From: a virus
Lineage: Duplodnaviria; Heunggongvirae; Uroviricota; Caudoviricetes
IMG/VR virus record: IMGVR_UViG_3300033077_000655
Direction: 5' to 3' (one strand)
Length of the DNA: 64,000 nucleotides
The notes under the pieces were generated by a model. The model saw nothing but the letters and a program-made list of their open reading frames with translations. It did no database searches and was not told the origin of the DNA. Positions 3,788-62,393 of this stretch are shown here, piece by piece (within the stretch, counting starts at the first letter, position 1; each line of letters opens with the position of its first letter). A program made the position numbers and the translations under genes.

Positions 3788-6454
3788 ATGAGTTACATTG
3801 ATGCACTATATGATCGAGCACACGATCGAATTCACGTTGTAGAACGCCGAGATGGCCGACGGGTATATCAAGAATATCCAGCCAACTATGTGCTTTACTA
3901 TGACGACCCACGTGGCAAGTTTCGTAGCATCTACGACACGCCTGTAAGTAGATTTTCCTCACGCAACAACAAAGAATTCCGCAAGGAAGTGCGTATGCAC
4001 TCCAGTAAGAAAATCTACGAAAGTGATATCAATCCTATTTTTCGTTGTTTAGAGGACAACTACAAAGGCCAAGACGGACCAAAGTTACACACAGCATTTT
4101 ATGACATTGAAGTTGACTTTGATCCAGAACGTGGATTCTCACCGGTAACTGATCCATTCAACCCAATCACCGCTATTTCAGTATACATGGATTGGTTGGA
4201 TCAGATTGTGACCTTGGCAGTACCACCGCGACACATGAGTATGGCAACTGCTAAAGAAATTGCCGCAGAGTTCGACAACTGCTTTATGTTTGAAAAAGAA
4301 GCAGACATGTTGAACACATTTCTAGACTTGATTGAAGATGCGGATATTCTCACTGGATGGAATAGTGAAGGCTATGACATTCCTTACACTGTGAATCGTA
4401 TCACCAGAGTGCTCAGCAAAGATGACACTAGACGTATGTGTTTGTGGAATCAGTATCCCAAGCCACGTATATTTGAACGATTTGGTGCAGAGAACCAAAC
4501 TTACGATTTGGTAGGACGAGTGCATATGGACTATATGCAATTGTATCGCAAATACACTTATGAAGAACGTCACAGCTATGCACTAGATGCCATTGGTGAA
4601 TACGAAGAAATTGGCCGAAAGACTGCATTTGAAGGCACACTGGATCAGCTGTACAACCAGAACTTCAAAATCTTTATTGATTACAACCGCCAAGATACAA
4701 TGCTGATTGGCAAGCTGGACAAGAAACTGAAATTTCTTAGCTTGGCCAATACACTGGCACATGAAAATACCGTGCTGCTGCAAACCACAATGGGTGCAGT
4801 GGCTGTGACTGAGCAAGCAATTATTATTGAAGCTCACGAACGTGGTATGGTAGTTCCTAACCGTAAAGAAAGACTCTCAGATGAAGACACGCAAGCCGCA
4901 GGTGCCTATGTTGCTTATCCCAAAAAAGGAATCCACGACTGGATTGGTAGTATCGACATCAACTCGCTCTATCCCAGTGCTATTCGGGCCCTTAACATGG
5001 GTCCAGAAACCATTGTCGGCCAACTCCGTCCCATAATGACTGACCGGCTGATTCGAGACAACATGACCAAGGGAGATAGCTTTGCTGCTGCTTGGGAAGG
5101 ATTGTTTGCCAGCCTAGAATACACAGCCGTGATGGAACAACAACGCGGTACAGAAATCACAATAGATTGGCAAGATGGCAATGAAACTGTGCATTCTGCT
5201 GCTGAAATATGGAAGATGCTGTTTGATTCAAATCAACCTTGGGTACTCAGTGCTAATGGAACCATATTCACCTATGAGAAAGAAGGTATCATTCCCGGCT
5301 TGCTCAAACGTTGGTATGCTGAACGTAAAGACATGCAGAAAAAAGCCAAGGAATACGAAGGCAAAGATGATGTGCAATTTGAATACTGGGACAAGCGACA
5401 ACTGGTCAAGAAGATTAATCTAAACAGTTTGTATGGTGCTATTCTCAATGCAGGTTGTAGATTCTTTGACAAACGTATTGGACAATCAACCACCTTGGTA
5501 GGTCGCAGCATTGCTAAACATATGGATGCATACGTGAACGAATGTATCACTGGTGAATACGATCACACAGGTAAAAGCATTATCTATGGTGATACTGATT
5601 CATGTTATTTCACAGCATGGCCCATGGTCAAAACTGAAGTCGAGGACGGCAGGATGGATTGGTCTGCAGAGACTTGTATTGCACTGTACAACTCCATTGC
5701 TGATCAAGTGAATGATAGTTTTCCAGGATTCATGGAACAGGCATTCCATTGTCCACGAGAAATGGGATCAGTTATCCGTGGCGGGCGAGAAATTGTAGCA
5801 CGTACCGGACTGTTTATTACCAAGAAACGATATGCTGTATTGTACATTGACAAAGAAAACAAACGTGTGGATGTGAATGGCAAGCCAGGCAAGGTCAAGG
5901 CCATGGGGCTTGATCTCAAAAGGTCAGACACGCCTGTGGTTATTCAAGAGTTCCTTAGCGATCTTCTAAATAAGGTTCTAACAGGAACACAGAGAGAAGA
6001 TATAGTGGCACGAGTCAGAGAGTTCAAATACGTATTCACAGAGCGACCAGGGTGGGAAAAGGGTAGTCCCAAACGTGTGAATAATTTAACCAAATATGGC
6101 AAAGAAGAACAACGACTGGGCAAAGCCAACATGCCTGGGCATGTTCGTGCTGCATTAAACTGGAACAATCTGCGACGAATGAATTCTGACAATTACTCAA
6201 TGCAAATTGTTGATGGTATGAAGACCATTGTGTGCAAACTCAAAAGCAATGCACTTGGGTGGACATCAATTGGTTATCCTACCGATGAACAACATTTACC
6301 ACAGTGGTTCAAAGACTTGCCATTTGATCATGTTGAGATGGAAGCCACTGTGGTAGATCAAAAGATTGATAATCTCTTGGGTGTGTTGGGATGGGACTTA
6401 AAGTCCAGCACCAACACAGCAAATACATTTACCAGCTTGTTCTCATTTGAATGA
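3788..6454 (+). CDS. DNA polymerase, family B (T4 gp43-like)
   Basis: Motifs DINSLYPS (motif A) and YGDTDS (motif C). 888 aa, with an exonuclease-like N-terminal half. Confidence 0.9.
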   Translation: MSYIDALYDRAHDRIHVVERRDGRRVYQEYPANYVLYYDDPRGKFRSIYDTPVSRFSSRNNKEFRKEVRMHSSKKIYESDINPIFRCLEDNYKGQDGPKLHTAFYDIEVDFDPERGFSPVTDPFNPITAISVYMDWLDQIVTLAVPPRHMSMATAKEIAAEFDNCFMFEKEADMLNTFLDLIEDADILTGWNSEGYDIPYTVNRITRVLSKDDTRRMCLWNQYPKPRIFERFGAENQTYDLVGRVHMDYMQLYRKYTYEERHSYALDAIGEYEEIGRKTAFEGTLDQLYNQNFKIFIDYNRQDTMLIGKLDKKLKFLSLANTLAHENTVLLQTTMGAVAVTEQAIIIEAHERGMVVPNRKERLSDEDTQAAGAYVAYPKKGIHDWIGSIDINSLYPSAIRALNMGPETIVGQLRPIMTDRLIRDNMTKGDSFAAAWEGLFASLEYTAVMEQQRGTEITIDWQDGNETVHSAAEIWKMLFDSNQPWVLSANGTIFTYEKEGIIPGLLKRWYAERKDMQKKAKEYEGKDDVQFEYWDKRQLVKKINLNSLYGAILNAGCRFFDKRIGQSTTLVGRSIAKHMDAYVNECITGEYDHTGKSIIYGDTDSCYFTAWPMVKTEVEDGRMDWSAETCIALYNSIADQVNDSFPGFMEQAFHCPREMGSVIRGGREIVARTGLFITKKRYAVLYIDKENKRVDVNGKPGKVKAMGLDLKRSDTPVVIQEFLSDLLNKVLTGTQREDIVARVREFKYVFTERPGWEKGSPKRVNNLTKYGKEEQRLGKANMPGHVRAALNWNNLRRMNSDNYSMQIVDGMKTIVCKLKSNALGWTSIGYPTDEQHLPQWFKDLPFDHVEMEATVVDQKIDNLLGVLGWDLKSSTNTANTFTSLFSFE

Positions 6455-16458: not shown

Positions 16459-18465
16459 ATGAAGAACAAAATTGCCTGGGTTCAACCCAATTTCCAACAA
16501 GGGCCTGCAGAGTTTAATGCATATTACTTGCCCTACTCAGCCGGTGTGGTATGGAGTTACAGTCTAGCTGATCCTTGGATTCGAGAACGGTTTGAAGCCA
16601 CTGATTGGGTATGGCGTAGAGACGCTGTAGAACCATTGGCACAAAAACTGGCACAAAACGACATTGTGACTTTTAGTACCTATGTGTGGAATCATCGTTA
16701 CAATTATGCTGTGGCCAAACGCATCAAGGAAATCAATCCTGCTGTATTGACTGTATTTGGTGGCCCTGAAGTTGCTATAACCGACCCTGACCTGTTTGTT
16801 AAAGAATCTTTTATGGATCTTGTGATTTGCTACGAAGGCGAAATAACTTTCAAACGTGTGCTACAGCACTTTGAAACTAAAGATTGGGAAAATGTACCTG
16901 GACTGTTGATCAACAGAAATGGCCGCGCAATACAAACACAGGATTCTAAACGTATTGAGTCATTAGAGGAAGTGCCCAGCCCGTACTTGGCAGGCATCTT
17001 TGACCAGATGATTGCCGATCATCCTGACATAACATGGCAAGGCACATTAGAAACCAATCGTGGTTGTCCGTTTGCTTGTACATTCTGTGACTGGGGTAGT
17101 TTGACCTACAACAAAGTTAAAAAGTTTGAACTTGAACGTGTGTTTGAAGAACTAGAATGGATGGCCAAACGCAACTTTGATTGGATCTCAATTACCGATG
17201 CTAACTTTGGTATGTTCCCCGAACGTGATGGTATGATTGCTGACAAGATAATTGAGTGCCAAGAAAAATACGGTTCTCCACGCACGTTTAGTGTGGCCTG
17301 GGCTAAAAATCAAAAGAAAGAAGTGATCGACATTGTAAAGAAACTGTTGGATGCTCGTGGCTTCAATCAAGGATTAACACTCAGTGTACAAAGCCTTGAC
17401 CAGGATGTGTTGGAAAATATTCGCCGCAAAAATATGGAAATGAACAAACTGGAGGAAGTGTTTGAATTATGTGATCAGCGTAATATTCCTGCATACACAG
17501 AACTCATACTTGGGTTGCCTGGTGAGACATTGACCACCTGGAAGAAAAACTTTTATGCATTGTACGAGTTAAATCAGCACACTGGCATTACTGTGTTTCA
17601 AGCGCAGTTGTTGGAAAATGCCGAAATGAACTTGTTGCAAAAGAAACTGTTCAAGATCACCAGCCAACCTGTTACAGATTACTTTGCTGGCAGTTACAGC
17701 GTGGAACACATTGAAGAAAGCATTGACGTTATCACCGGCACCAAAGACATGCCCACACCAGTGATGTTGGATGCACAGATCTTTTCCTGGTTCCAGACCA
17801 CATTCCACATAAATGGATTTGCCACATTGATTGCTAGATTTATCAACAAATACACAGGTATAAGTTACAATGATTACTATGAAGAGTTGTTTGCATATTT
17901 TATGACCAATGAGTGGTTGAAGAAAGAACAAAACGAAGCAAGACAATACTTTTCTAATTGGATGACCACTGGCCGAATCAACCATCCCAAGATTGGTGTG
18001 GAAATACACGGGTGGAACATCATACACAGAACCAGCATGAACATGCATCAAGAAGATCGGGTAGATGAGTTGTATGATTTCTTGGAAATATTTTTGCAAC
18101 GATACAATCTACCCGAAGATTTATCAACCAGTCTGATGAAACTACAAAGAAGTTACTACATCAAGTACAATGATAGAAATCAATATCCTATGAATCTTAA
18201 GTTAGATTATAATATTTGGGATTACTTGAGTTTTAATCAACCCTTGACAAAGACTTCTACAACATATCGATTGGACTTTCCAGAGGATAAAACTATGAGT
18301 CTTAATCGATTCTTAGAACTGTTTTATTTTGCAAGACGCAGAAACTTTGGTAAAGCCACTGTGGATCTTGTGGGAGTCGAAAATGCCAATGGAACACAAC
18401 GTGGTGCTGGGAGTGCCAAAGCACAAGGCAGTTTTTCTGTGAAGAAAAAATTATTAACCATATAA
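16459..18465 (+). CDS. B12-binding-domain radical SAM protein
   Basis: NRGCPFACTFCDW (Cx3Cx2C) follows an N-terminal Rossmann-like B12-binding-like domain. Confidence 0.7.
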   Translation: MKNKIAWVQPNFQQGPAEFNAYYLPYSAGVVWSYSLADPWIRERFEATDWVWRRDAVEPLAQKLAQNDIVTFSTYVWNHRYNYAVAKRIKEINPAVLTVFGGPEVAITDPDLFVKESFMDLVICYEGEITFKRVLQHFETKDWENVPGLLINRNGRAIQTQDSKRIESLEEVPSPYLAGIFDQMIADHPDITWQGTLETNRGCPFACTFCDWGSLTYNKVKKFELERVFEELEWMAKRNFDWISITDANFGMFPERDGMIADKIIECQEKYGSPRTFSVAWAKNQKKEVIDIVKKLLDARGFNQGLTLSVQSLDQDVLENIRRKNMEMNKLEEVFELCDQRNIPAYTELILGLPGETLTTWKKNFYALYELNQHTGITVFQAQLLENAEMNLLQKKLFKITSQPVTDYFAGSYSVEHIEESIDVITGTKDMPTPVMLDAQIFSWFQTTFHINGFATLIARFINKYTGISYNDYYEELFAYFMTNEWLKKEQNEARQYFSNWMTTGRINHPKIGVEIHGWNIIHRTSMNMHQEDRVDELYDFLEIFLQRYNLPEDLSTSLMKLQRSYYIKYNDRNQYPMNLKLDYNIWDYLSFNQPLTKTSTTYRLDFPEDKTMSLNRFLELFYFARRRNFGKATVDLVGVENANGTQRGAGSAKAQGSFSVKKKLLTI

Positions 18466-41984: not shown

Positions 41985-42743
41985 ATGTCCGTATTCTTAG
42001 ACTCAGTGATAGAGTTCTACATCACCAATCAATGCAACCTAGCCTGCACCAACTGCAATAGGTTCAATGATCACGATTTCCGTGGTCACTACTATTGGGA
42101 GGATTCTGCACCTGCTGTCACAGCATGGAGTCAACGTATCAATGCATCAATGATAGTGATCATTGGCGGTGAACCCAGCTTGCATCCTGGGTTAGAAACT
42201 TGGGTGATGAATCTTCGCAGATTATGGCCGGACACCACAATCATGATTCAGAGTAATGGCACTAATGCAAAAATAGCAAAAGATCTCGACTCTTACAGCA
42301 AGTACCATGTGGGATGGGGTATAAGTGTACATCGTCCTGAGATGCGACCTGCATTAGAACGACAATGGGGCAACCTTATTGACAACACAGAATTTACCCC
42401 GGCTGCAATTATTCCGCAAGGTGATGCATTTGTTGTTCATCAGAGCAATCCGATAACTGCATTCAAAGCCTGCACCATGCGGCATAGTCACACTGTATTC
42501 AAAGGAAAACTGTACAAGTGTCCTGTGATGGCTGTGCTGCCAGAGTTCCGCACACAGCAATCAGTAATCATGGATACCAGGCAAGAACAGTTGTTGGCTC
42601 AGTATCAACCATTGAGTGCGGACTGTACTGAGCAACAGTTGACGGACTTTGTAGACACAAGAAATCAACCCATTGATCAATGTGAATTTTGCCCTGGTGA
42701 ATTTGATTTCCAGCCAGTGGTATTTCACAAAAGAAAAAAATAA
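41985..42743 (+). CDS. radical SAM protein (single Cx3Cx2C cluster)
   Basis: FYITNQCNLACTNCNRF...IIGGEPSLHPGL. Confidence 0.5.
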   Translation: MSVFLDSVIEFYITNQCNLACTNCNRFNDHDFRGHYYWEDSAPAVTAWSQRINASMIVIIGGEPSLHPGLETWVMNLRRLWPDTTIMIQSNGTNAKIAKDLDSYSKYHVGWGISVHRPEMRPALERQWGNLIDNTEFTPAAIIPQGDAFVVHQSNPITAFKACTMRHSHTVFKGKLYKCPVMAVLPEFRTQQSVIMDTRQEQLLAQYQPLSADCTEQQLTDFVDTRNQPIDQCEFCPGEFDFQPVVFHKRKK

Positions 42744-44850: not shown

Positions 44851-45325
44851 CCAAGTTTATCCCTGCGTGGTGTACAAGTAGCACGACGCCGTATACACGT
44901 AAGCAGTAAGCGCAATTCTTACTCGCAGGGGCCAAGTTTATGTGTGAGAGCCGGATTAGTGACGGTGCCGATGTAGTTCGGTGAAAGGGTGAGCGAACCC
45001 ACCCCCACACACCAAGTTTTGCACCTGGCGTAATGGAAGCGTTACAGGTTAGTATCGAAAGATATACCCGAGAGGCGATGCGGGGGGTGCAGGGTTCGAT
45101 TCCCTGCGGTGCATTCAAGTTTTGTAAGTGTCAGCAAGAGAAAGACTCGCTGGGAAGATTCTTCGAAGGTCAACCCAGTGTAAAAGTAGATCCGGTTCAA
45201 ATCCGGCTAGGCTACGGAGCGTCTATGTCAGAGTATCCCAAGTGACGGACCACCTACCGTCCGGACTAGTGCATTCGGTTAAAAGGTTGCGATAACAGTG
45301 GCGCAACTACTTGCAAATTCAATCT

Positions 45326-47598: not shown

Positions 47599-47668
47599 CC
47601 AACGCAGACTCTTGGTTCAATGGTAGAACGGTATTACTATAAATAGTATTCTACCATTGGAGAATAAG

Positions 47669-48055
47669 ATGCCAAAACCAAAAATCCATCCTCGCATATA
47701 TAATTGTATTCATTGTGGAACAGAGAATGAATGGACCACAAAAAAGAATAATAAGTTTTGTAACCATTCTTGTCAGCAAAATTATAGATGGATAAATGAA
47801 ACAAAACCATTGATAGAATCTGGGAAAAAAAATACAAACAATTTTAGAGCCTTACTAAAATATGTCAAAGAACGAGATGGCTATAAATGTAAAATTTGTG
47901 ATTTAACCAATTGGCAAGGAAACCCTATATCATTGGATTTAGATCACATAGATGGAAATAATAAAAACAATTTTCCAAGTAACCTACGATTGTTATGTCC
48001 TAACTGTCATAGGCAAACTCCTACTTGGGGTAATAAAACTCGTTCTGGTCTATAG
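47669..48055 (+). CDS. HNH homing endonuclease
   Basis: LDLDHIDGNNKNN...LRLLCPNCH. Start set at the ATG at 47669, which has a GGAG RBS. Confidence 0.7.
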   Translation: MPKPKIHPRIYNCIHCGTENEWTTKKNNKFCNHSCQQNYRWINETKPLIESGKKNTNNFRALLKYVKERDGYKCKICDLTNWQGNPISLDLDHIDGNNKNNFPSNLRLLCPNCHRQTPTWGNKTRSGL

Positions 48056-48117
48056 ATTAGCGGTAAATCGTTACGTTGACATCGTAAAGATCACTGGTTC
48101 GATTCCAGTTAGACCAA
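48046..48117 (+). tRNA. tRNA-Val (GAC)
   Basis: Perfect acceptor TGGTCTA/TAGACCA; anticodon arm TTACG-TTGACAT-CGTAA; T arm ACTGG-TTCGATT-CCAGT. Overlaps the HNH stop. Confidence 0.75.
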
Positions 48118-48150: not shown

Positions 48151-48358
48151 TGCAGCATGTTAAGAAATTAACATACGCTCATTAAAAATTTATTGATATA
48201 AAGACTGGAAACAGTCCAAGTCTTTATATCCACATGCACAAATGCCTTGCGCAGGCAGATGTAGCGGATTACAGCTCTGGTCAATCCGGGGTAGGCAGGT
48301 TCAATTCCTGCAAGTGTATGTGGATATAGAGATTTTGATAATTCAAAATAAAAAATTT

Positions 48359-48601: not shown

Positions 48602-48688
48602 GCGACTGTAGCCGAATTGGTCTAGGCATCAGATTTAAAATCTGACGATTCCGAAAGGGTCTTGTGGGTTCGAGTCCCACCAGTCGCA
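48602..48688 (+). tRNA. tRNA-Leu (TAA), class II
   Basis: Perfect acceptor GCGACTG/CAGTCGC; anticodon arm TCAGA-TTTAAAA-TCTGA; long variable arm; T arm GTGGG-TTCGAGT-CCCAC. Confidence 0.85.
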
Positions 48689-48692
48689 CCAG

Positions 48693-48767
48693 CTGGCGTT
48701 AGTATAATGGATAATACAGGGGATTTCTACTCCCTAAATGGCAGTTCGATTCCGGCCAGTTGCACCA
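48693..48767 (+). pseudogene. degenerate copy of tRNA-Arg (TCT): 5' two-thirds intact, 3' acceptor does not pair
   Basis: Identical to the 50320 tRNA through the anticodon arm (GGGGA-TTTCTAC-TCCCT), then diverges (AATGGCAGTTCGATTCCGGCCAGTTGCACCA). Confidence 0.5.
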
Positions 48768-48783
48768 CTCATAAATAAATTAC

Positions 48784-50310
48784 ATGTACAATGCTATACT
48801 TTTTACAGATCGAACCGACAACATATTTGGATCGGTCACTATTGGGGCATTTAAATGTGCTCATGTTTTAAGAAAACACGGATACTCGTGTTTGGTAGTC
48901 AATCATTATTCAGAATATACACATGAGGATCTGGTTGAACTTGTTGATTTAGCAGTGTCAGATCAAACTATCCTGATTGGGTTTAGTTCTACATATTTAA
49001 AAAATACTCAAATACAAAAACAAGTAGGAGAACCCACACCACCATATCCTGACATTGTTGATGACTCGGTATTCCCGCAAGGCAAAGATTTTGAAAATAA
49101 ATTTTTTGAATATTTGCATAAAACAAATAGCAAACTAAAAATCATAGTAGGTGGTACAAGGGTAACACAACAATATTCTAACAGGAATATTGACTATGCA
49201 TTTATTGGATATAGTGAAATATCTATAGTTAATCTAGCCAATCATCTGACCACCGGCGAACGCTTAGATAAAAGCAGTAAAAATATATACGGTGTGGTCA
49301 TCGTTGATGATCGATTTGCTCCTGCATATAATTTTAATAGTGAAGATATGAGTTGGGAAGCCACAGATATAGTGAATCATCACAGTCTTCCTATAGAAAT
49401 AGGTCGTGGATGTATTTTTAAATGCAAGTTTTGTGCCTTTCCGATGAATGGAAAACAAAATTTAGATTTTGTTAAAACTGCTGATATACTGGAAGCTGAG
49501 TTAAAAAACAACTACGATAGGTATGGTGTTCGACATTATCACATTGTGGATGATACCTTCAATGACCATATTGAAAAATTAGAATCTATACGTCGTGTGG
49601 TTGATCGTTTGAATTTTCAACCGGTATTTTGGGGGTATCACAGATTAGATCTACTGTGTACTAGACCAGAAACAGTAAAAATATTGCACGATATTGGTGT
49701 TAGATCAATGTATTTTGGCATTGAGACTTTGAATGAAAAAGCAGGAAAAATAATTGGTAAAGGATACAACAAATCACGTCAGATTGACATGATTCAAACC
49801 ATTCGCAATCAATATTCTGACATCTCAATGCACGGAAGTTTTATTCTAGGATTGCCCGAGGAGAGTATTGACAGCGTGTGGGAAACTCATAATAGTTTAA
49901 TAAGTCAACAGATTCCATTGCATAGTTGGATGTCAAATGGATTGCACATGTATAACAACGATAAATCTACATACGTCAGTGAGTTTGAAAAAAACTTTAC
50001 CAAATATGGGTATGTTGATATTGGCACTGATAATGAATCTAATTCAAGAAATTGGAAGAACAATTTTACTAACAGTGAAGAAGTCAGAGTATTGGCTGCA
50101 AAATTTACCAACGAATCTCGACGGTTACCAAATTTTATGCTGCCCGGGCATGATGCATTGGCTTTGTCAACATATGGCGTTGATTTTGATATATCACGAT
50201 TTACCCCATATCATCAATTTGATTTCCATGCTGTAGAGCACACTGTTAAACCAAATTTTGATAAAGAATATAAAAAACAATTGTTGAATCTTATTCAACA
50301 TTCTAAATAA
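48784..50310 (+). CDS. B12-binding-domain radical SAM protein (paralog 1)
   Basis: GRGCIFKCKFCAF (Cx3Cx2C); N-terminal Rossmann-like domain; paralog of 50508..52154. Confidence 0.7.
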   Translation: MYNAILFTDRTDNIFGSVTIGAFKCAHVLRKHGYSCLVVNHYSEYTHEDLVELVDLAVSDQTILIGFSSTYLKNTQIQKQVGEPTPPYPDIVDDSVFPQGKDFENKFFEYLHKTNSKLKIIVGGTRVTQQYSNRNIDYAFIGYSEISIVNLANHLTTGERLDKSSKNIYGVVIVDDRFAPAYNFNSEDMSWEATDIVNHHSLPIEIGRGCIFKCKFCAFPMNGKQNLDFVKTADILEAELKNNYDRYGVRHYHIVDDTFNDHIEKLESIRRVVDRLNFQPVFWGYHRLDLLCTRPETVKILHDIGVRSMYFGIETLNEKAGKIIGKGYNKSRQIDMIQTIRNQYSDISMHGSFILGLPEESIDSVWETHNSLISQQIPLHSWMSNGLHMYNNDKSTYVSEFEKNFTKYGYVDIGTDNESNSRNWKNNFTNSEEVRVLAAKFTNESRRLPNFMLPGHDALALSTYGVDFDISRFTPYHQFDFHAVEHTVKPNFDKEYKKQLLNLIQHSK

Positions 50311-50319
50311 CCCAAACAT

Positions 50320-50391
50320 CTGGCGTTAGTATAATGGATAATACAGGGGATTTCTACTCCCTAGATAGCAGTTCGATTCTGTTACGCCGGA
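50320..50391 (+). tRNA. tRNA-Arg (TCT)
   Basis: Acceptor CTGGCGT/ACGCCGG; D arm GTAT-AATGGAT-AATAC; anticodon arm GGGGA-TTTCTAC-TCCCT; T arm AGCAG-TTCGATT-CTGTT. Confidence 0.65.
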
Positions 50392-50401
50392 CCAGCCAAA
50401 T

Positions 50402-50490
50402 GCCAGCGAGACTTGGAAGTCAGAGAGGTCTTATACGCCTTTTAGCCCCAGATTAGGGTTCTTGAGAGAGTTCGATCCTCTCCGCTGGTA
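50402..50490 (+). tRNA. class-II-length tRNA of uncertain identity (possible anticodon TAT)
   Basis: Acceptor GCCAGCG/CGCTGGT; T arm GAGAG-TTCGATC-CTCTC; variable-arm hairpin AGCCCcagattaGGGTT; best anticodon arm GAGGT-CTTATAC-GCCTT (two G·U pairs). Confidence 0.45.
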
Positions 50491-50507
50491 CCACACATAA
50501 GTAATGA

Positions 50508-52154
50508 ATGTTTAATAATAAAAAACCTAATGTTATTTTAATTACAGATTCTACTGATATAATTTCTTTAAACATTCTACTTGGGCCATTTAAAGTAGCA
50601 CATGTTCTTAAAGAGCATGGAATAGAAGTTGCAATGATACATCATGCATCAGCATTGTCATTTAAAGAAATAACTACTATTCTCAAAGAGATAATATCTG
50701 ATCAAACTTTGTTGGTGGGTATAAACAATTTCTATTATTCTTCCATTGAACTTAATAAAGATAATGGCAGTGATGGCATGACATTAAAAGAAATTGACCC
50801 AGGTAGTTTTTTACCTCATGGAAAAAGCAAAAATATTGAGTTAAAAACACTGATTAAATCATTGAATCCCAAAACCAAAATAGTGCTTGGCGGTGTGACT
50901 GCATTAGATACCAAGTACAACAAAGATTTTGATTATCTTGTGTTAGGATACGCCGAAACTGCAATATTGGATCTGGTGGATCATCTTAGGTCATCGTCTC
51001 CTATAGAAAAAAGTTATAAAAGTATCTATGGGCCAATAGTGCTGACAGACAAGGTAGCGTCTAGATATGATTTTTCATCATCCCATATGCGGTATGATCC
51101 AGACTGGTCAATACTGCCTGGATCAACATTTCATCTAGAATTAGGTCGTGGATGCATTTTTAAATGTGCATTTTGCGCTTATCCTTTCAATGGAAAAAAG
51201 AAAACTGATTATATTAGATCAAAAGAATCTATTCAGGCTGAGATGATAGACAATTACAACAGATTTGGTGTCACACGTTATTTGATGGGTGACGATACGT
51301 TTAACGACAACGTTGATAAATGCCGAATGATTTATGAAATATCCCAAGAACTTCCATTTAAATTAGAGTACTGGGCGTATTTGAGATTAGACCTGCTGAC
51401 GGCACATCCTGAAACAATAGATTATTTGTTTGACAGCGGCTTAAAAGCGGCGTTTTTTGGTATTGAAACTCTGAACCCCAAGACTGCATCTATAATAGGC
51501 AAAGGTGGCAATCGAGATAAAATGTTTAAAACTATAGCTGATATTAAATCTAAGTGGGGTGATTTAGTTTCGTTAGCCGCTGGGTTTATTTATGGATTAC
51601 CCGAAGAAGATTTAGATAGCCTACAACGCACAACTGATTTTTTGATCAGTGACCAAAACAAACTAGATCAGTGGCTAGTTGAAGCTTTAAACATACGCCC
51701 TACCGTTGATTATGATAATAGCTTTATCAGCGATATAGAAAAAAATTATGAAAAATATGGTTATAGTAAAATAGACAACCACACTCGTCCAGGTGGGTCC
51801 AATATAGGCACTGATCGCCGACGACATGCTATAGTCTGGAAGAATAAACACACAGACTATTACTCTGTTTTAAACATTACCGAAGCACTGAATGCTAGAA
51901 TAAAACCACACTTGAAAATTCCCGGCGATGCGGCTCTCCTGTTGAGTGGGCTAGGCATAGATTTAGACCAACTATTAAACAAACAACATGACCAAGTGCC
52001 GTGGAATAAACTAGATCAACTACATTTAAAAAAAGTTTTTGAGTATAAAAAACTCTTAGCTAAGAATTTAAATTTTGATATTAATCTCATTGACATGAAA
52101 ATTTTGCATCACAAAACGTACGGTAATTATCTCAAAGCAATGTTTGAAAAATAA
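50508..52154 (+). CDS. B12-binding-domain radical SAM protein (paralog 2)
   Basis: GRGCIFKCAFCAY; domain order as in 48784..50310. Confidence 0.7.
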   Translation: MFNNKKPNVILITDSTDIISLNILLGPFKVAHVLKEHGIEVAMIHHASALSFKEITTILKEIISDQTLLVGINNFYYSSIELNKDNGSDGMTLKEIDPGSFLPHGKSKNIELKTLIKSLNPKTKIVLGGVTALDTKYNKDFDYLVLGYAETAILDLVDHLRSSSPIEKSYKSIYGPIVLTDKVASRYDFSSSHMRYDPDWSILPGSTFHLELGRGCIFKCAFCAYPFNGKKKTDYIRSKESIQAEMIDNYNRFGVTRYLMGDDTFNDNVDKCRMIYEISQELPFKLEYWAYLRLDLLTAHPETIDYLFDSGLKAAFFGIETLNPKTASIIGKGGNRDKMFKTIADIKSKWGDLVSLAAGFIYGLPEEDLDSLQRTTDFLISDQNKLDQWLVEALNIRPTVDYDNSFISDIEKNYEKYGYSKIDNHTRPGGSNIGTDRRRHAIVWKNKHTDYYSVLNITEALNARIKPHLKIPGDAALLLSGLGIDLDQLLNKQHDQVPWNKLDQLHLKKVFEYKKLLAKNLNFDINLIDMKILHHKTYGNYLKAMFEK

Positions 52155-52168
52155 CATTTTCCAAAAAT

Positions 52169-52239
52169 GTATCCATAGTGTAATGGCAGCATCGCGGTCT
52201 CCAAAACCGTCAGTCTAGGTTCGAGTCCTAGTGGGTACG
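52169..52239 (+). tRNA. tRNA-Trp (CCA)
   Basis: Acceptor GTATCCA/TGGGTAC; anticodon arm GCGGT-CTCCAAA-ACCGT; T arm CTAGG-TTCGAGT-CCTAG. Confidence 0.7.
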
Positions 52240-52259
52240 CCAATCAAAGAAAGTAAATT

Positions 52260-53048: not shown

Positions 53049-53633
53049 ATGAAAGAAATTATGAAAATTAATCTACGTAAAGCCAACGCATTGCAACTGA
53101 GTGTTCAGGAAGCAATCAAAGGTATCAAATTTGATACCGAAGTCAAGATCAACGAATTTCAAGTGGCAGAAGATGTGATTGCCAAGGCACGTGAAGACTT
53201 TGCCGTGAAGCAAGAACGGCACCGTGGGCTGCTAAACAGCCTGTACGATATCCGCAAGGCAGTGAGCCAGGCTAATAGTGCCCAAGGTGTAGATGTCAAG
53301 CTGGCCGATGTGGCCTTGATGGACAAGAAGATCCAGTACCTGGCTGATCTAGCCGGCAAAAGTACACGTGACAGCGCAGAGGTTGTGGCCGGTAAGATGG
53401 AAAAATTGCGTAATCGCAAGGAAAGCAACAGCTCTTTGTACTACGGGCACGATGCCACTGTGGACACTTCTATCTTTACTCAAGAAGATATCACAGGATT
53501 CCGTACAGCAGTGAGCCTGGGCAAGAAAGCCAAACAGAAGTTGCAAGACGAATTGTTGGAGATCAATGTTCGTACCGAGATTGAGCTTGGTGCTGATGCG
53601 GTTACTGTGTTGACTACAGAAGGTCTTCTATAG
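53049..53633 (+). CDS. hypothetical protein
   Basis: ORF; predicted helical. Confidence 0.4.
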   Translation: MKEIMKINLRKANALQLSVQEAIKGIKFDTEVKINEFQVAEDVIAKAREDFAVKQERHRGLLNSLYDIRKAVSQANSAQGVDVKLADVALMDKKIQYLADLAGKSTRDSAEVVAGKMEKLRNRKESNSSLYYGHDATVDTSIFTQEDITGFRTAVSLGKKAKQKLQDELLEINVRTEIELGADAVTVLTTEGLL

Positions 53634-53898
53634 GCCCAAGCCTGTGAAGAATGTTTGTTGCTCGAGTTCTAAGTCTCATTGAGAATTCGGCCTCGGTCAA
53701 CACACCTTTTGCTAGATTACACTTACGGCAAGTCACTTGTAGATTGTGGTAAGTGGTTGAGCCACCTTTTGATTCAGGAACCACATGATCCATATGGATC
53801 TCAGAATCAGACAGGTCCTCGTCACAGTACACACAACGCAAGCCATCGCGTTCAATGATTCTGCGACGAAGATTCAATGGGATACGTTGTTTTAGCAT
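53614..53898 (-). CDS. HNH endonuclease (McrA-like)
   Basis: CVYCDEDL...HMDHVVPESKGG...NLQVTCRKCNLAKG. Confidence 0.6.
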   Translation of the reverse strand: MLKQRIPLNLRRRIIERDGLRCVYCDEDLSDSEIHMDHVVPESKGGSTTYHNLQVTCRKCNLAKGVLTEAEFSMRLRTRATNILHRLGPIEDLL

Positions 53899-54171: not shown

Positions 54172-54260
54172 GGAGAGTAATGCAGCGGGGATGGTCCTGC
54201 GACTGGCCTTGAAAACCAGGTTCTCAGAAATGGGATGGGGTTCGACTCCTCTGCTCTCCG
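54172..54260 (+). tRNA. tRNA-Ser (TGA), class II
   Basis: Acceptor GGAGAGT/GCTCTCC; D stem GCAG/CTGC; anticodon loop CTTGAAA; long variable arm; T loop TTCGACT. Confidence 0.7.
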
Positions 54261-61988: not shown

Positions 61989-62085
61989 ACTTCCTATCTA
62001 TGGTGTGTGTTCAGATTATATAGAAACTATATTGTCTAAATAAATATATGAATAGTCGTAATCCCTTCAAAACAAAGGAATCCAA

Positions 62086-62366
62086 GACTCGGGGGCAGTG
62101 CCCGAATGGTCCACCAGAAGCATAATCGATTGGCTCAGAGCCAGTTGAGACATAAGAAACATGATTGTGCTTTTGATGGGCCATACACAGGATCGATTGG
62201 GTTAGATAGTGGCGACGGCGACTCGGTAGGCGATGACCGTTAATCAAGCGAAACCTATAAATGCCAACGACAGCGTTTATTCCTTAGCTGCCTAAACTCA
62301 GCTTAGGGTAGTTATACCTCGTAACAGAAAATAACAGAAGCCCGCTTCGGCGGGCTTTCTTTTGAC
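62086..62366 (+). ncRNA. ssrA: candidate tmRNA (ssrA)-like RNA with tag reading frame ANDSVYSLAA-stop; architecture unresolved
   Basis: Sits in a 380-bp non-coding gap. GCC AAC GAC AGC GTT TAT TCC TTA GCT GCC TAA at 62263-62295, preceded by CTATAAAT. Upstream ...GGTCCACCA at 62112-62120. Ends in a strong terminator. Confidence 0.5.
62338..62364 (+). terminator. intrinsic terminator
   Basis: AAGCCCGC-TTCG-GCGGGCTT followed by TCTTTTG. Confidence 0.8.
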
Positions 62367-62393
62367 TGTTATTTTTGATCACTATATACTAGC

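Follow-up and report, generated by a model that had tools for sequence, protein, structure and literature searches.

Two near-identical copies of the 5′ part of a tRNA-Arg(UCU) gene stand at positions 48693 and 50320 of a 64,000-nucleotide (nt) stretch of a tailed-phage genome (Caudoviricetes; IMG/VR record IMGVR_UViG_3300033077_000655), hereafter called the window. Each of them precedes a gene for a radical-SAM protein (rSAM1 and rSAM2, respectively), and the locus therefore raises the question of whether the tRNA pieces and the genes were copied together. An earlier note on this DNA had described it as one tandem duplication of a tRNA-Arg plus B12-binding radical-SAM unit, and as a snapshot of duplication and divergence inside a tRNA array. 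From the present analysis, we consider it likely, with good confidence, that the tRNA copy at 48693 (copy 1) is a recent recombination scar derived from a patch of ~140 nt, and that rSAM1 and rSAM2 are old paralogs residing in separate cargo slots of the array.

The composition of copy 1 carries most of the argument. Compared with the intact tRNA-Arg at 50320, its first 44 nt are identical and the first mismatch falls at position 45, so the 5′ repeat described in the earlier note stands while its length is 44 and not 45 nt; 58 of 60 positions agree through the T-loop (96.7%), and 7 of the 15 that follow (pairwise blastn, E 4e-19). The 60 nt in question cover the acceptor 5′ strand, the D arm, the anticodon arm, the T-stem 5′ strand and the T-loop. 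The last 15 nt, together with the spacer leading to rSAM1, line up position for position with the tRNA-Leu(UAA) 3′ end and its spacer in the relative L001 (IMGVR_UViG_3300009068_000061), which reads CCGGCCAGTcGCACCA-CTCATAAATAAATcAC-ATG, and copy 1 is therefore chimeric. Read across the junction, the window has TTCGAtTCCGGCCAGTtGCACCA-CTCATAAATAAATtAC-ATG and L001 has TTCGAgTCCGGCCAGTcGCACCA-CTCATAAATAAATcAC-ATG; positions 1–60 of copy 1 are Arg(UCU), positions 61–75 are Leu(UAA), and the switch lies within the T-loop box GTTCGA(T/G)TC. Instead of being Arg-derived as a whole, copy 1 is an Arg 5′ part joined to a Leu 3′ part inside the shared box GTTCGAnTC, and has the make-up of a chimeric pseudogene, with its 5′ end from one tRNA, its 3′ end from another and the joint in sequence common to both. 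A product of this kind has been described from plastids, where illegitimate recombination between tRNA genes left a chimeric tRNA pseudogene at the endpoint of an inversion in rice (Hiratsuka 1989, in PMC12371153). The two cases are alike in being a hybrid of two tRNA genes at a breakpoint, with the crossover in tRNA-conserved sequence and a product that is non-functional, most likely so in the window. They are unlike in that the setting here is a phage array, the change is a short replacement patch and not an inversion, and the partner tRNA appears to have been replaced by a foreign allele.

The Arg::Leu joint was also recovered in five Logan contigs from the five SRA runs SRR8942316, SRR8942307, SRR8942313, SRR31615961 and SRR15557812, reading ...CCCTAAATGGCAGTTCGATTCCGGCCAGTTGCACCACTCATAAAT-rSAM1, all of which encode an identical rSAM1 and hold the diagnostic Arg A45/G48, the T-loop, the Leu 3′ end and the spacer. 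The joint is not an assembly artefact. Short-read assembly graphs break at repeats, and they break here too, as all five Logan contigs end on both sides inside the 44-nt repeat, which speaks for a mis-join at this repeat as the origin of the hybrid. Such a mis-join is nevertheless exceedingly improbable: the repeat does not include the Arg(A45/G48)::Leu-3′ junction, which is contiguous into rSAM1 in five independent runs, and, given single-copy edges, the path taken in the window is the sole linear path that contains rSAM1.

The arrangement without copy 1 is seen in relatives that share the flanks. Between 47093 and 53000 the window and L001 are 94–100% identical per 50-nt bin with two exceptions, namely a block holding an HNH gene and the patch at ~48610–48752. 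L001 contains both rSAM1 (96%) and rSAM2 (96%) and only one tRNA-Arg, so that a relative with both paralogs does not have both copies of the supposed unit, and a spacer of 16 nt, with no Arg copy in it, separates its intact tRNA-Leu(UAA) from the rSAM1 start codon. Likewise, L030, with an rSAM1 ortholog of 81% identity, has Leu, a 16-nt spacer and rSAM1, and lacks copy 1. Copy 1, being absent from these same-flank relatives, is the derived state. The tRNA-Leu(UAA) allele that stands one base upstream of it in the window (Leu′) is 74–78% identical to the Leu(UAA) genes of L001, L030, L006 and L010, and 97% identical to an allele on L153, a contig that is otherwise differently organised and has other gene content; judged from these identities, Leu′ appears to be a foreign allele that replaced the resident tRNA-Leu. 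The Arg piece differs from the resident gene at two positions, and these two bases, A45 and G48, co-occur in the intact Arg(UCU) of L024; the Arg-allele-specific 23-mer CTCCCTAAATGGCAGTTCGATTC, which belongs entirely to the Arg-derived part, has this L024 tRNA as its sole IMG/VR match.

These features would be most simply accounted for if a patch of ~140 nt (roughly 48610–48752), consisting of a foreign tRNA-Leu(UAA) allele and, directly after it, the 5′ 60 nt of an allele of tRNA-Arg(UCU), had been copied into an L001-like genome as one short conversion or recombination tract. The left crossover would lie in, or just upstream of, the common tRNA-Leu 5′ end, and the right crossover would have arisen by microhomology between T-loops, whose box GTTCGAnTC is common to tRNA genes. 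The resident tRNA-Leu would thereby have lost its 5′ two-thirds to the patch, while its final 15 nt stayed behind, joined to the Arg fragment; Leu(UAA) decoding would come from the incoming allele, and Arg(UCU) decoding from the gene at 50320. The donor would presumably be another phage, and arrays in which Leu(UAA) is followed by Arg(UCU) without rSAM1 between them occur in L006 and L010. The event is ordinary phage mosaicism, and a new example of known processes. A mirror history, in which a Leu′-Arg array acquired an rSAM1 cassette from an L001-like phage via a T-loop crossover, is mechanistically equivalent to the patch history and less parsimonious, because the upstream flank is likewise L001-like.

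A source within the same genome would require no foreign phage: a template switch or unequal crossover in one genome or concatemer would have linked the resident Leu gene at its T-loop to the T-loop of the resident Arg gene, or of another copy beyond the window. It is favoured by the identity of the first 44 nt to the resident gene and by T-loop microhomology available in cis, and phage concatemers recombine freely. Nonetheless, we regard it as unlikely. A simple Arg × Leu T-loop crossover predicts rSAM1 on both sides of the hybrid, and a single copy is seen; the base preceding the Arg piece is G at copy 1 and T at the resident gene; and two facts are left unexplained, namely that the neighbouring tRNA-Leu allele is only 78% identical to that of L001 and that the two differences from the resident Arg form a natural allele elsewhere, in L024.

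Several points weigh against the replacement of a patch from another phage. The exact donor arrangement Leu′-G-Arg was not found: the exact Leu′ 3′ half had no match in IMG/VR, the Leu′+Arg junction pattern had none in JGI metagenomes, and a shorter Leu′ pattern matched only L153, the sole other carrier of Leu′, in which non-tRNA sequence follows. The spacer between Leu and Arg is 41 nt in L006 and L010 and 1 nt in the window. The left side of the structure (Leu′-G-Arg 5′) is seen in the window assembly alone, because the independent contigs end inside the 44-nt repeat. The 44-nt Arg 5′ half, which is present in 18 IMG/VR contigs in many different contexts, is extremely conserved across phages, and identity to the resident gene therefore neither dates the event nor excludes an intragenomic source. 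Finally, the link to an endonuclease is circumstantial, and the hybrid's lack of function is read from its structure. As a separate observation, positions 2134–2142 of L153 (minus strand), right after its tRNA-Leu(taa), read CTGGCTTTG, similar to the first 8–9 nt of tRNA-Arg(UCU), CTGGCGTTA; this could be a vestige of an earlier Leu′-Arg adjacency, or chance.

The patch event was possibly started by the repair of a homing-endonuclease break. Break-induced repair is a plausible trigger in view of an HNH gene, unique to the window, 550 nt upstream of the patch. This open reading frame (ORF), situated between tRNA-Ala(ggc) and tRNA-Val(gac), is absent from L001, where 47643–48090 is a pure alignment gap (~440 nt), and its GC content of 0.313 is the second lowest of 45 ORFs checked. 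In phage T4, the homing endonuclease gene segB lies in a tRNA cluster and drives the preferential inheritance of the region (PMC2330249), and in T6 a SegB-dependent segmental amplification of the tRNA locus was reported, for which the authors proposed microhomology recombination (PMC13096335). The window resembles these in having a free-standing endonuclease gene inside a tRNA cluster and junctions in short homologies involving tRNA genes, and differs in that the enzyme is of the HNH and not the GIY-YIG type, that its role is putative, and that a patch with a hybrid tRNA resulted, not a tandem amplification. A second HNH gene is present at 53614–53898 on the minus strand. The features of the locus are listed in Table 1.

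Table 1. Features in and around the two cargo slots of the tRNA array, with window coordinates.
Feature	Position	Strand	Support or remark
HNH homing-endonuclease ORF, 132 aa	47657..48055	+	PHROGs HNH endonuclease, E 2.7e-25
Intact tRNA-Leu(UAA), allele Leu′	48602..48691	+	ARAGORN; Rfam 64.4 bits
tRNA-Arg(UCU) 5′ 60 nt, Arg-derived part of the chimera	48693..48752	+	58/60 identical to 50320-50379
Relic 3′ end of resident tRNA-Leu(UAA) (CGGCCAGTTGCACCA) and 16-nt spacer to rSAM1	48753..48783	+	
rSAM1, cobalamin-type (class B-like) radical-SAM, 508 aa (GRGCIFKCKFCAF)	48784..50310	+	Slot Leu-Arg
Intact resident tRNA-Arg(UCU)	50320..50394	+	ARAGORN; Rfam 58.1 bits; cloverleaf minimum-energy fold
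tRNA with anticodon UAU and long extra arm, called tRNA-Ile(tat), 92 nt (89 + CCA)	50402..50493	+	ARAGORN
rSAM2, rSAM1 paralog of the other subfamily, 548 aa (GRGCIFKCAFCAY)	50508..52154	+	Slot UAU-Trp
tRNA-Trp(CCA), next backbone tRNA, closing cargo slot 2	52169..52242	+	ARAGORN

Whether the hybrid could still serve as a tRNA was assessed from its structure. The earlier note had held that the first copy lost its acceptor pairing, which the present data bear out, the copy being a relative of Arg(UCU) that is most likely non-functional: ARAGORN did not call copy 1, its Rfam alignment (31.8 bits, against a gathering score of 29) has a T stem broken at two pairs and an acceptor with three pairs that are non-standard, and it thus lacks the canonical 7-bp acceptor and 5-bp T stem. 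In a wider Rfam search the match to copy 1 was limited to model positions 8–63, and at minimum energy it does not fold into a cloverleaf (z = −0.2). Because of the three bad acceptor pairs and two bad T-stem pairs, the hybrid is most likely a dead pseudo-tRNA. Alternatively, it might be a functional tRNA-like element, acting as processing punctuation that releases the rSAM1 mRNA, or as an uncharged decoy whose intact tRNA-Arg(UCU) anticodon arm is offered to anticodon nucleases of the host. Its D arm and anticodon arm are intact, it is unchanged in five samples, and it is placed exactly where relatives have a tRNA 3′ end before rSAM1. Such a function is still very unlikely, as the element is absent from the closest relatives and is therefore dispensable for rSAM1 expression, no conservation was found outside one genotype, and its fold is no more stable than that of shuffled sequence.

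The two radical-SAM genes point to a different time scale. That each tRNA copy precedes one of a pair of paralogous radical-SAM genes was confirmed, the proteins being colinear from one end to the other, with 35% identity over about 517 aa (E 7e-113) and DNA identity of about 60% over a 600-nt core. Colinearity thus extends beyond the tRNA fragment, on which the earlier note had made the duplication depend, yet it does not separate the competing histories. The identities of 96.7% for the tRNA piece against about 60% for the gene DNA show that the two SIMILARITIES differ in age, and divergence along the supposed unit is therefore far from equal. Among the best 120 listed matches of rSAM1, identities were 45–92% to rSAM1 and 30–39% to rSAM2, while all of the best 120 listed matches of rSAM2 were closer to rSAM2 than to rSAM1, so that both sets (120/120 and 120/120) sort into two subfamilies. 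Since the matches split cleanly by subfamily, the paralogy predates the wide radiation of both across phages. The two genes are not each other's closest relatives, as each has hundreds of homologs, many of them in other phages, that are nearer to it than the other paralog. The two subfamilies must themselves go back to an old tandem duplication at some point in phage history, and for the window the independent residence of two family members in two slots is favoured over duplication in place. For the family, >1,400 and >590 database matches were obtained, mostly on phage-like metagenomic contigs, some of which are very large. The ortholog of rSAM1 in L031 is 79% identical to it; P0001 (92%) and P0005 (69%) are intermediate relatives, and the P0005 contig harbors three tandem rSAM genes.

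A comparison of relatives revealed a recurring order of Pro-Leu(UAA)-Arg(UCU)-Ile(UAU)-Trp, with inter-tRNA slots that are variable or empty. The Arg-UAU-Trp order is also present in L006, L010, L030 and L043. The window and L001 share the occupancy given in Table 1, and in L030 slot 1 is taken by rSAM1 and slot 2 by an Asp/Arg hydroxylase. Both slots are empty in L006, and in L010 the Leu-Arg slot is empty and three unrelated ORFs lie between the UAU tRNA and Trp. An rSAM1 ortholog is placed after tRNA-Pro in L031, and an rSAM2-type gene after yet another tRNA in L151.

With this comparison, the tandem duplication can be weighed. In its full form, a single segmental event would have copied tRNA-Arg(UCU), with or without the class-II tRNA, together with a B12 radical-SAM gene, after which the upstream unit lost its second tRNA and its tRNA-Arg began to decay. 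The colinear order and orientation, the 58/60 agreement of the tRNA pieces and the colinear full-length proteins (35%) fit such an event. It is highly improbable all the same, because the divergence of tRNA piece and genes is discordant, the 3′ end of copy 1 is Leu-derived and not decayed Arg, and the paralogs belong to separate deep subfamilies; moreover, it is contradicted by L001 and L030, in which rSAM1 directly follows an intact tRNA-Leu without copy 1, and L006 has the Leu-Arg-UAU-Trp backbone without either rSAM gene. The likeness of the upstream spacers is likewise a general one, reflecting a AAGTAAAT-like leader before many genes. Neither the single unit duplication nor the snapshot of its divergence is thus upheld, and the locus corrects a possible misreading, as a near-identical tRNA fragment beside paralogous genes need not mean that a unit was duplicated.

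The leader is an observation in its own right. Several genes located right after tRNAs have, ahead of the start codon, a AAGTAAAT-like leader that is rich in A and in which no Shine-Dalgarno sequence is obvious, at 48768–48783, 50494–50507 and 52243–52259 of the window and also in L006, L030 and L151, and it occurs twice in the Leu-Arg spacer of both L006 and L010. It may be a common initiation or processing signal. The similar spacers of rSAM1 and rSAM2 (ACCAC-CATAA-TAA) had been considered as a relic of a class-II-tRNA plus rSAM unit; this was rejected, as AAGTAAAT-like leaders precede many post-tRNA genes in the window and its relatives.

The earlier description of the genes as B12-binding radical SAM agrees with the modelled fold of rSAM1, which is closest to that of cobalamin enzymes; the Pfam B12-binding matches stay below threshold. 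Both proteins contain the CX3CX2C cluster motif, whose cysteines (C210, C214 and C217) are invariant in 67 homologs, and both exceed the Pfam cut-off for PF04055 Radical_SAM (70.8 and 60.1 bits, cut-off 29.5), while the B12-binding scores of 18.5 and 22.4 bits are below the cut-off of 32.1. An AlphaFold2 model of rSAM1 (pLDDT 93.6) was matched by Foldseek to TsrM, OxsB, MgmA and CysS as the best PDB folds (E 3e-18 to 1e-13, TM about 0.55–0.63), with MiaB, RimO, AprD4 and MtaB next after these cobalamin enzymes. Similar to TsrM, OxsB, MgmA and CysS, rSAM1 has CX3CX2C and, in the model, an N-terminal Rossmann-like domain, a radical-SAM barrel and a C-terminal domain; it differs from them in that identity is only 11–15% and no curated family threshold is reached. 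A direct sequence search of rSAM1 against PDB gave no match, the family profile gave only weak ones (AprD4, MgmA, TM_1862, RimO and TokK), and neither NCBIfam nor PHROGs provided a family-level assignment. On the modelled fold, 'B12-type radical SAM' seems a fair label of architecture. rSAM1 and rSAM2 point to a large, uncharacterised radical-SAM family that is mostly carried on phage-like contigs.

Both genes are poor in GC (0.341 and 0.345, against an ORF mean of 0.41 with a standard deviation of 0.045), and ATA makes up 41–51% of their Ile codons versus 25% overall, in keeping with foreign cargo and with a need for the neighbouring tRNAs that read AUA, AGA and UUA. Two further radical-SAM genes were noticed in the window. 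A third B12-type gene at 16459–18465 (668 aa) has its B12-binding domain above threshold; it was rejected as a close paralog of rSAM1 and rSAM2, given that only the cluster motif aligns. A 252-aa radical-SAM protein is encoded at 41985–42743, at the head of the tRNA array. In L149/L150, L151 and the P0005 contig, family members lie beside Asp/Arg hydroxylases, TauD dioxygenases, ClpS/ClpP and metallophosphatases, and this neighbourhood hints at a macromolecule-modifying module.

It was also considered whether rSAM1 and rSAM2 act on tRNAs of the array, such as through methylation or some other modification of Leu(UAA), Arg(UCU) or the UAU tRNA. Several independent lineages (L001, L002, L030, L031 and L151) have family members within a tRNA array or next to one, more distant members are so placed in L039, L050 and L052, and the RNA and protein modifiers MiaB, RimO and MtaB are among the next-best folds. 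On the other side, the L149 members lie with Asp/Arg hydroxylases, TauD and Clp and have no tRNA among their called neighbours (tRNAs were not scanned there), the L003–L005 contigs have no tRNA within 6 kb, and slot contents differ between close relatives. We regard such a role as quite unlikely. If true, decoding might be tuned, or the tRNAs shielded from host anticodon nucleases, and a cobalamin-type class of radical-SAM enzymes working on tRNA would be at hand. Nothing specific was found in the literature on radical-SAM genes in phage tRNA arrays.

The class-II-like tRNA that the earlier note placed after the second tRNA-Arg copy was confirmed, at a total length that includes the CCA end (Table 1). 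It had no Rfam tRNA match at E ≤ 1. Its 18-nt core is present in >119 IMG/VR contigs and, among 185,579 species genomes, in 6 contigs, 5 of which are labelled as metagenome-assembled genomes. Homologs lie in L033–L148. The fold, which was tested on 60 distinct sequences, has an acceptor of 7 bp, a D stem of 4 bp closed by a 4-nt D-loop, an anticodon stem of apparently 7 bp with the loop CUUAUAM, and an extra arm and a T stem of 5 bp each. Across the 60 sequences, 100% of the cells pair and 11 pairs show compensatory change; G1.U72 occurs in 56 and A73 in all 60, and the extra-arm loop CAGAUUA is near-invariant, its second base being C and not A in one of the 60 (L001). The neighbours of this tRNA vary widely among arrays, and a homolog in the cultured jumbo phage Phosso of Sinorhizobium is annotated as tRNA-Ile(tat). 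An allo-tRNA or tRNA-Sec-like identity was considered and rejected, as the covariation-supported geometry is 7/5, while these tRNAs have acceptor/T-stem geometries of 8/4 or 9/3 (PMC5389517). Its likeness to allo-tRNA is limited to the UAU anticodon, the long extra arm and the D-loop of 4 nt. Nothing specific on a phage UAU tRNA with a long arm came up in the literature.

As to the setting, the window encodes a family-B DNA polymerase (3788–6454) and sugar-modification genes, and its 36 tRNA genes lie mostly within 42.7–55.5 kb on the plus strand, in the order ...Val-Cys-Pro-Leu(UAA)-Arg(UCU)-Ile-like(UAU)-Trp across the region. No close DNA relative was found in INPHARED, where an 8-kb query matched only an 81-nt tRNA of Yersinia phages and a tblastn search with rSAM2 gave no match; the close relatives are IMG/VR viral contigs, with none among cultured phages. 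From the lack of cultured relatives, the IMG/VR relatives and the gene content, the window is therefore part of a large, uncultured phage, probably of the jumbo type. The tRNA arrays of T4-like, T5-like and jumbo phages are interspersed with small ORFs and homing endonucleases. The present array is similar to them in its dense same-strand tRNAs, occasional cargo and HNH ORFs and an order that is mosaic between relatives, and differs in that its cargo comprises two radical-SAM genes of 500–550 aa and that the Leu(UAA)-Arg(UCU)-UAU-Trp backbone can be traced across relatives with different slot contents. With its T-loop crossover, allele swap and hybrid pseudo-tRNA beside a cargo gene, the locus would be a clean, datable footprint of the reshuffling of phage tRNA arrays, and, if this is general, the T-loop box would be a portable recombination site by which cargo genes and tRNA alleles move among co-infecting phages.

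A few other elements of the region were also observed. An 87-nt 'tRNA-Cys(aca)' was called by ARAGORN at 48234–48320 with the anticodon at position 38 and had no Rfam match; the 238-nt spacer around it is roughly 83–100% identical to L001 in 50-nt bins. At 54172–54259, between tRNA-Gly(gcc) and tRNA-Arg(tcg), a weak match to the tRNA-Sec model (34.9 bits, gathering score 47) lacks an ARAGORN call, and L001 has a tRNA-Ser(tga) at roughly this place; the element could be another unusual or decayed class-II tRNA. A transfer-messenger RNA with the tag peptide ANDSVYSLAA lies downstream of the array at 62024–62386. Between tRNA-Phe and tRNA-Tyr, a 470-nt gap (44854–45325) without a tRNA call contains T-arm-like boxes at 45094 and 45195, and the two hairpins there, TGCAGGGTTCGATTCCCTGCG and CCGGTTCAAATCCGG, which resemble T arms left without a tRNA, may represent non-canonical tRNAs or additional tRNA remnants.

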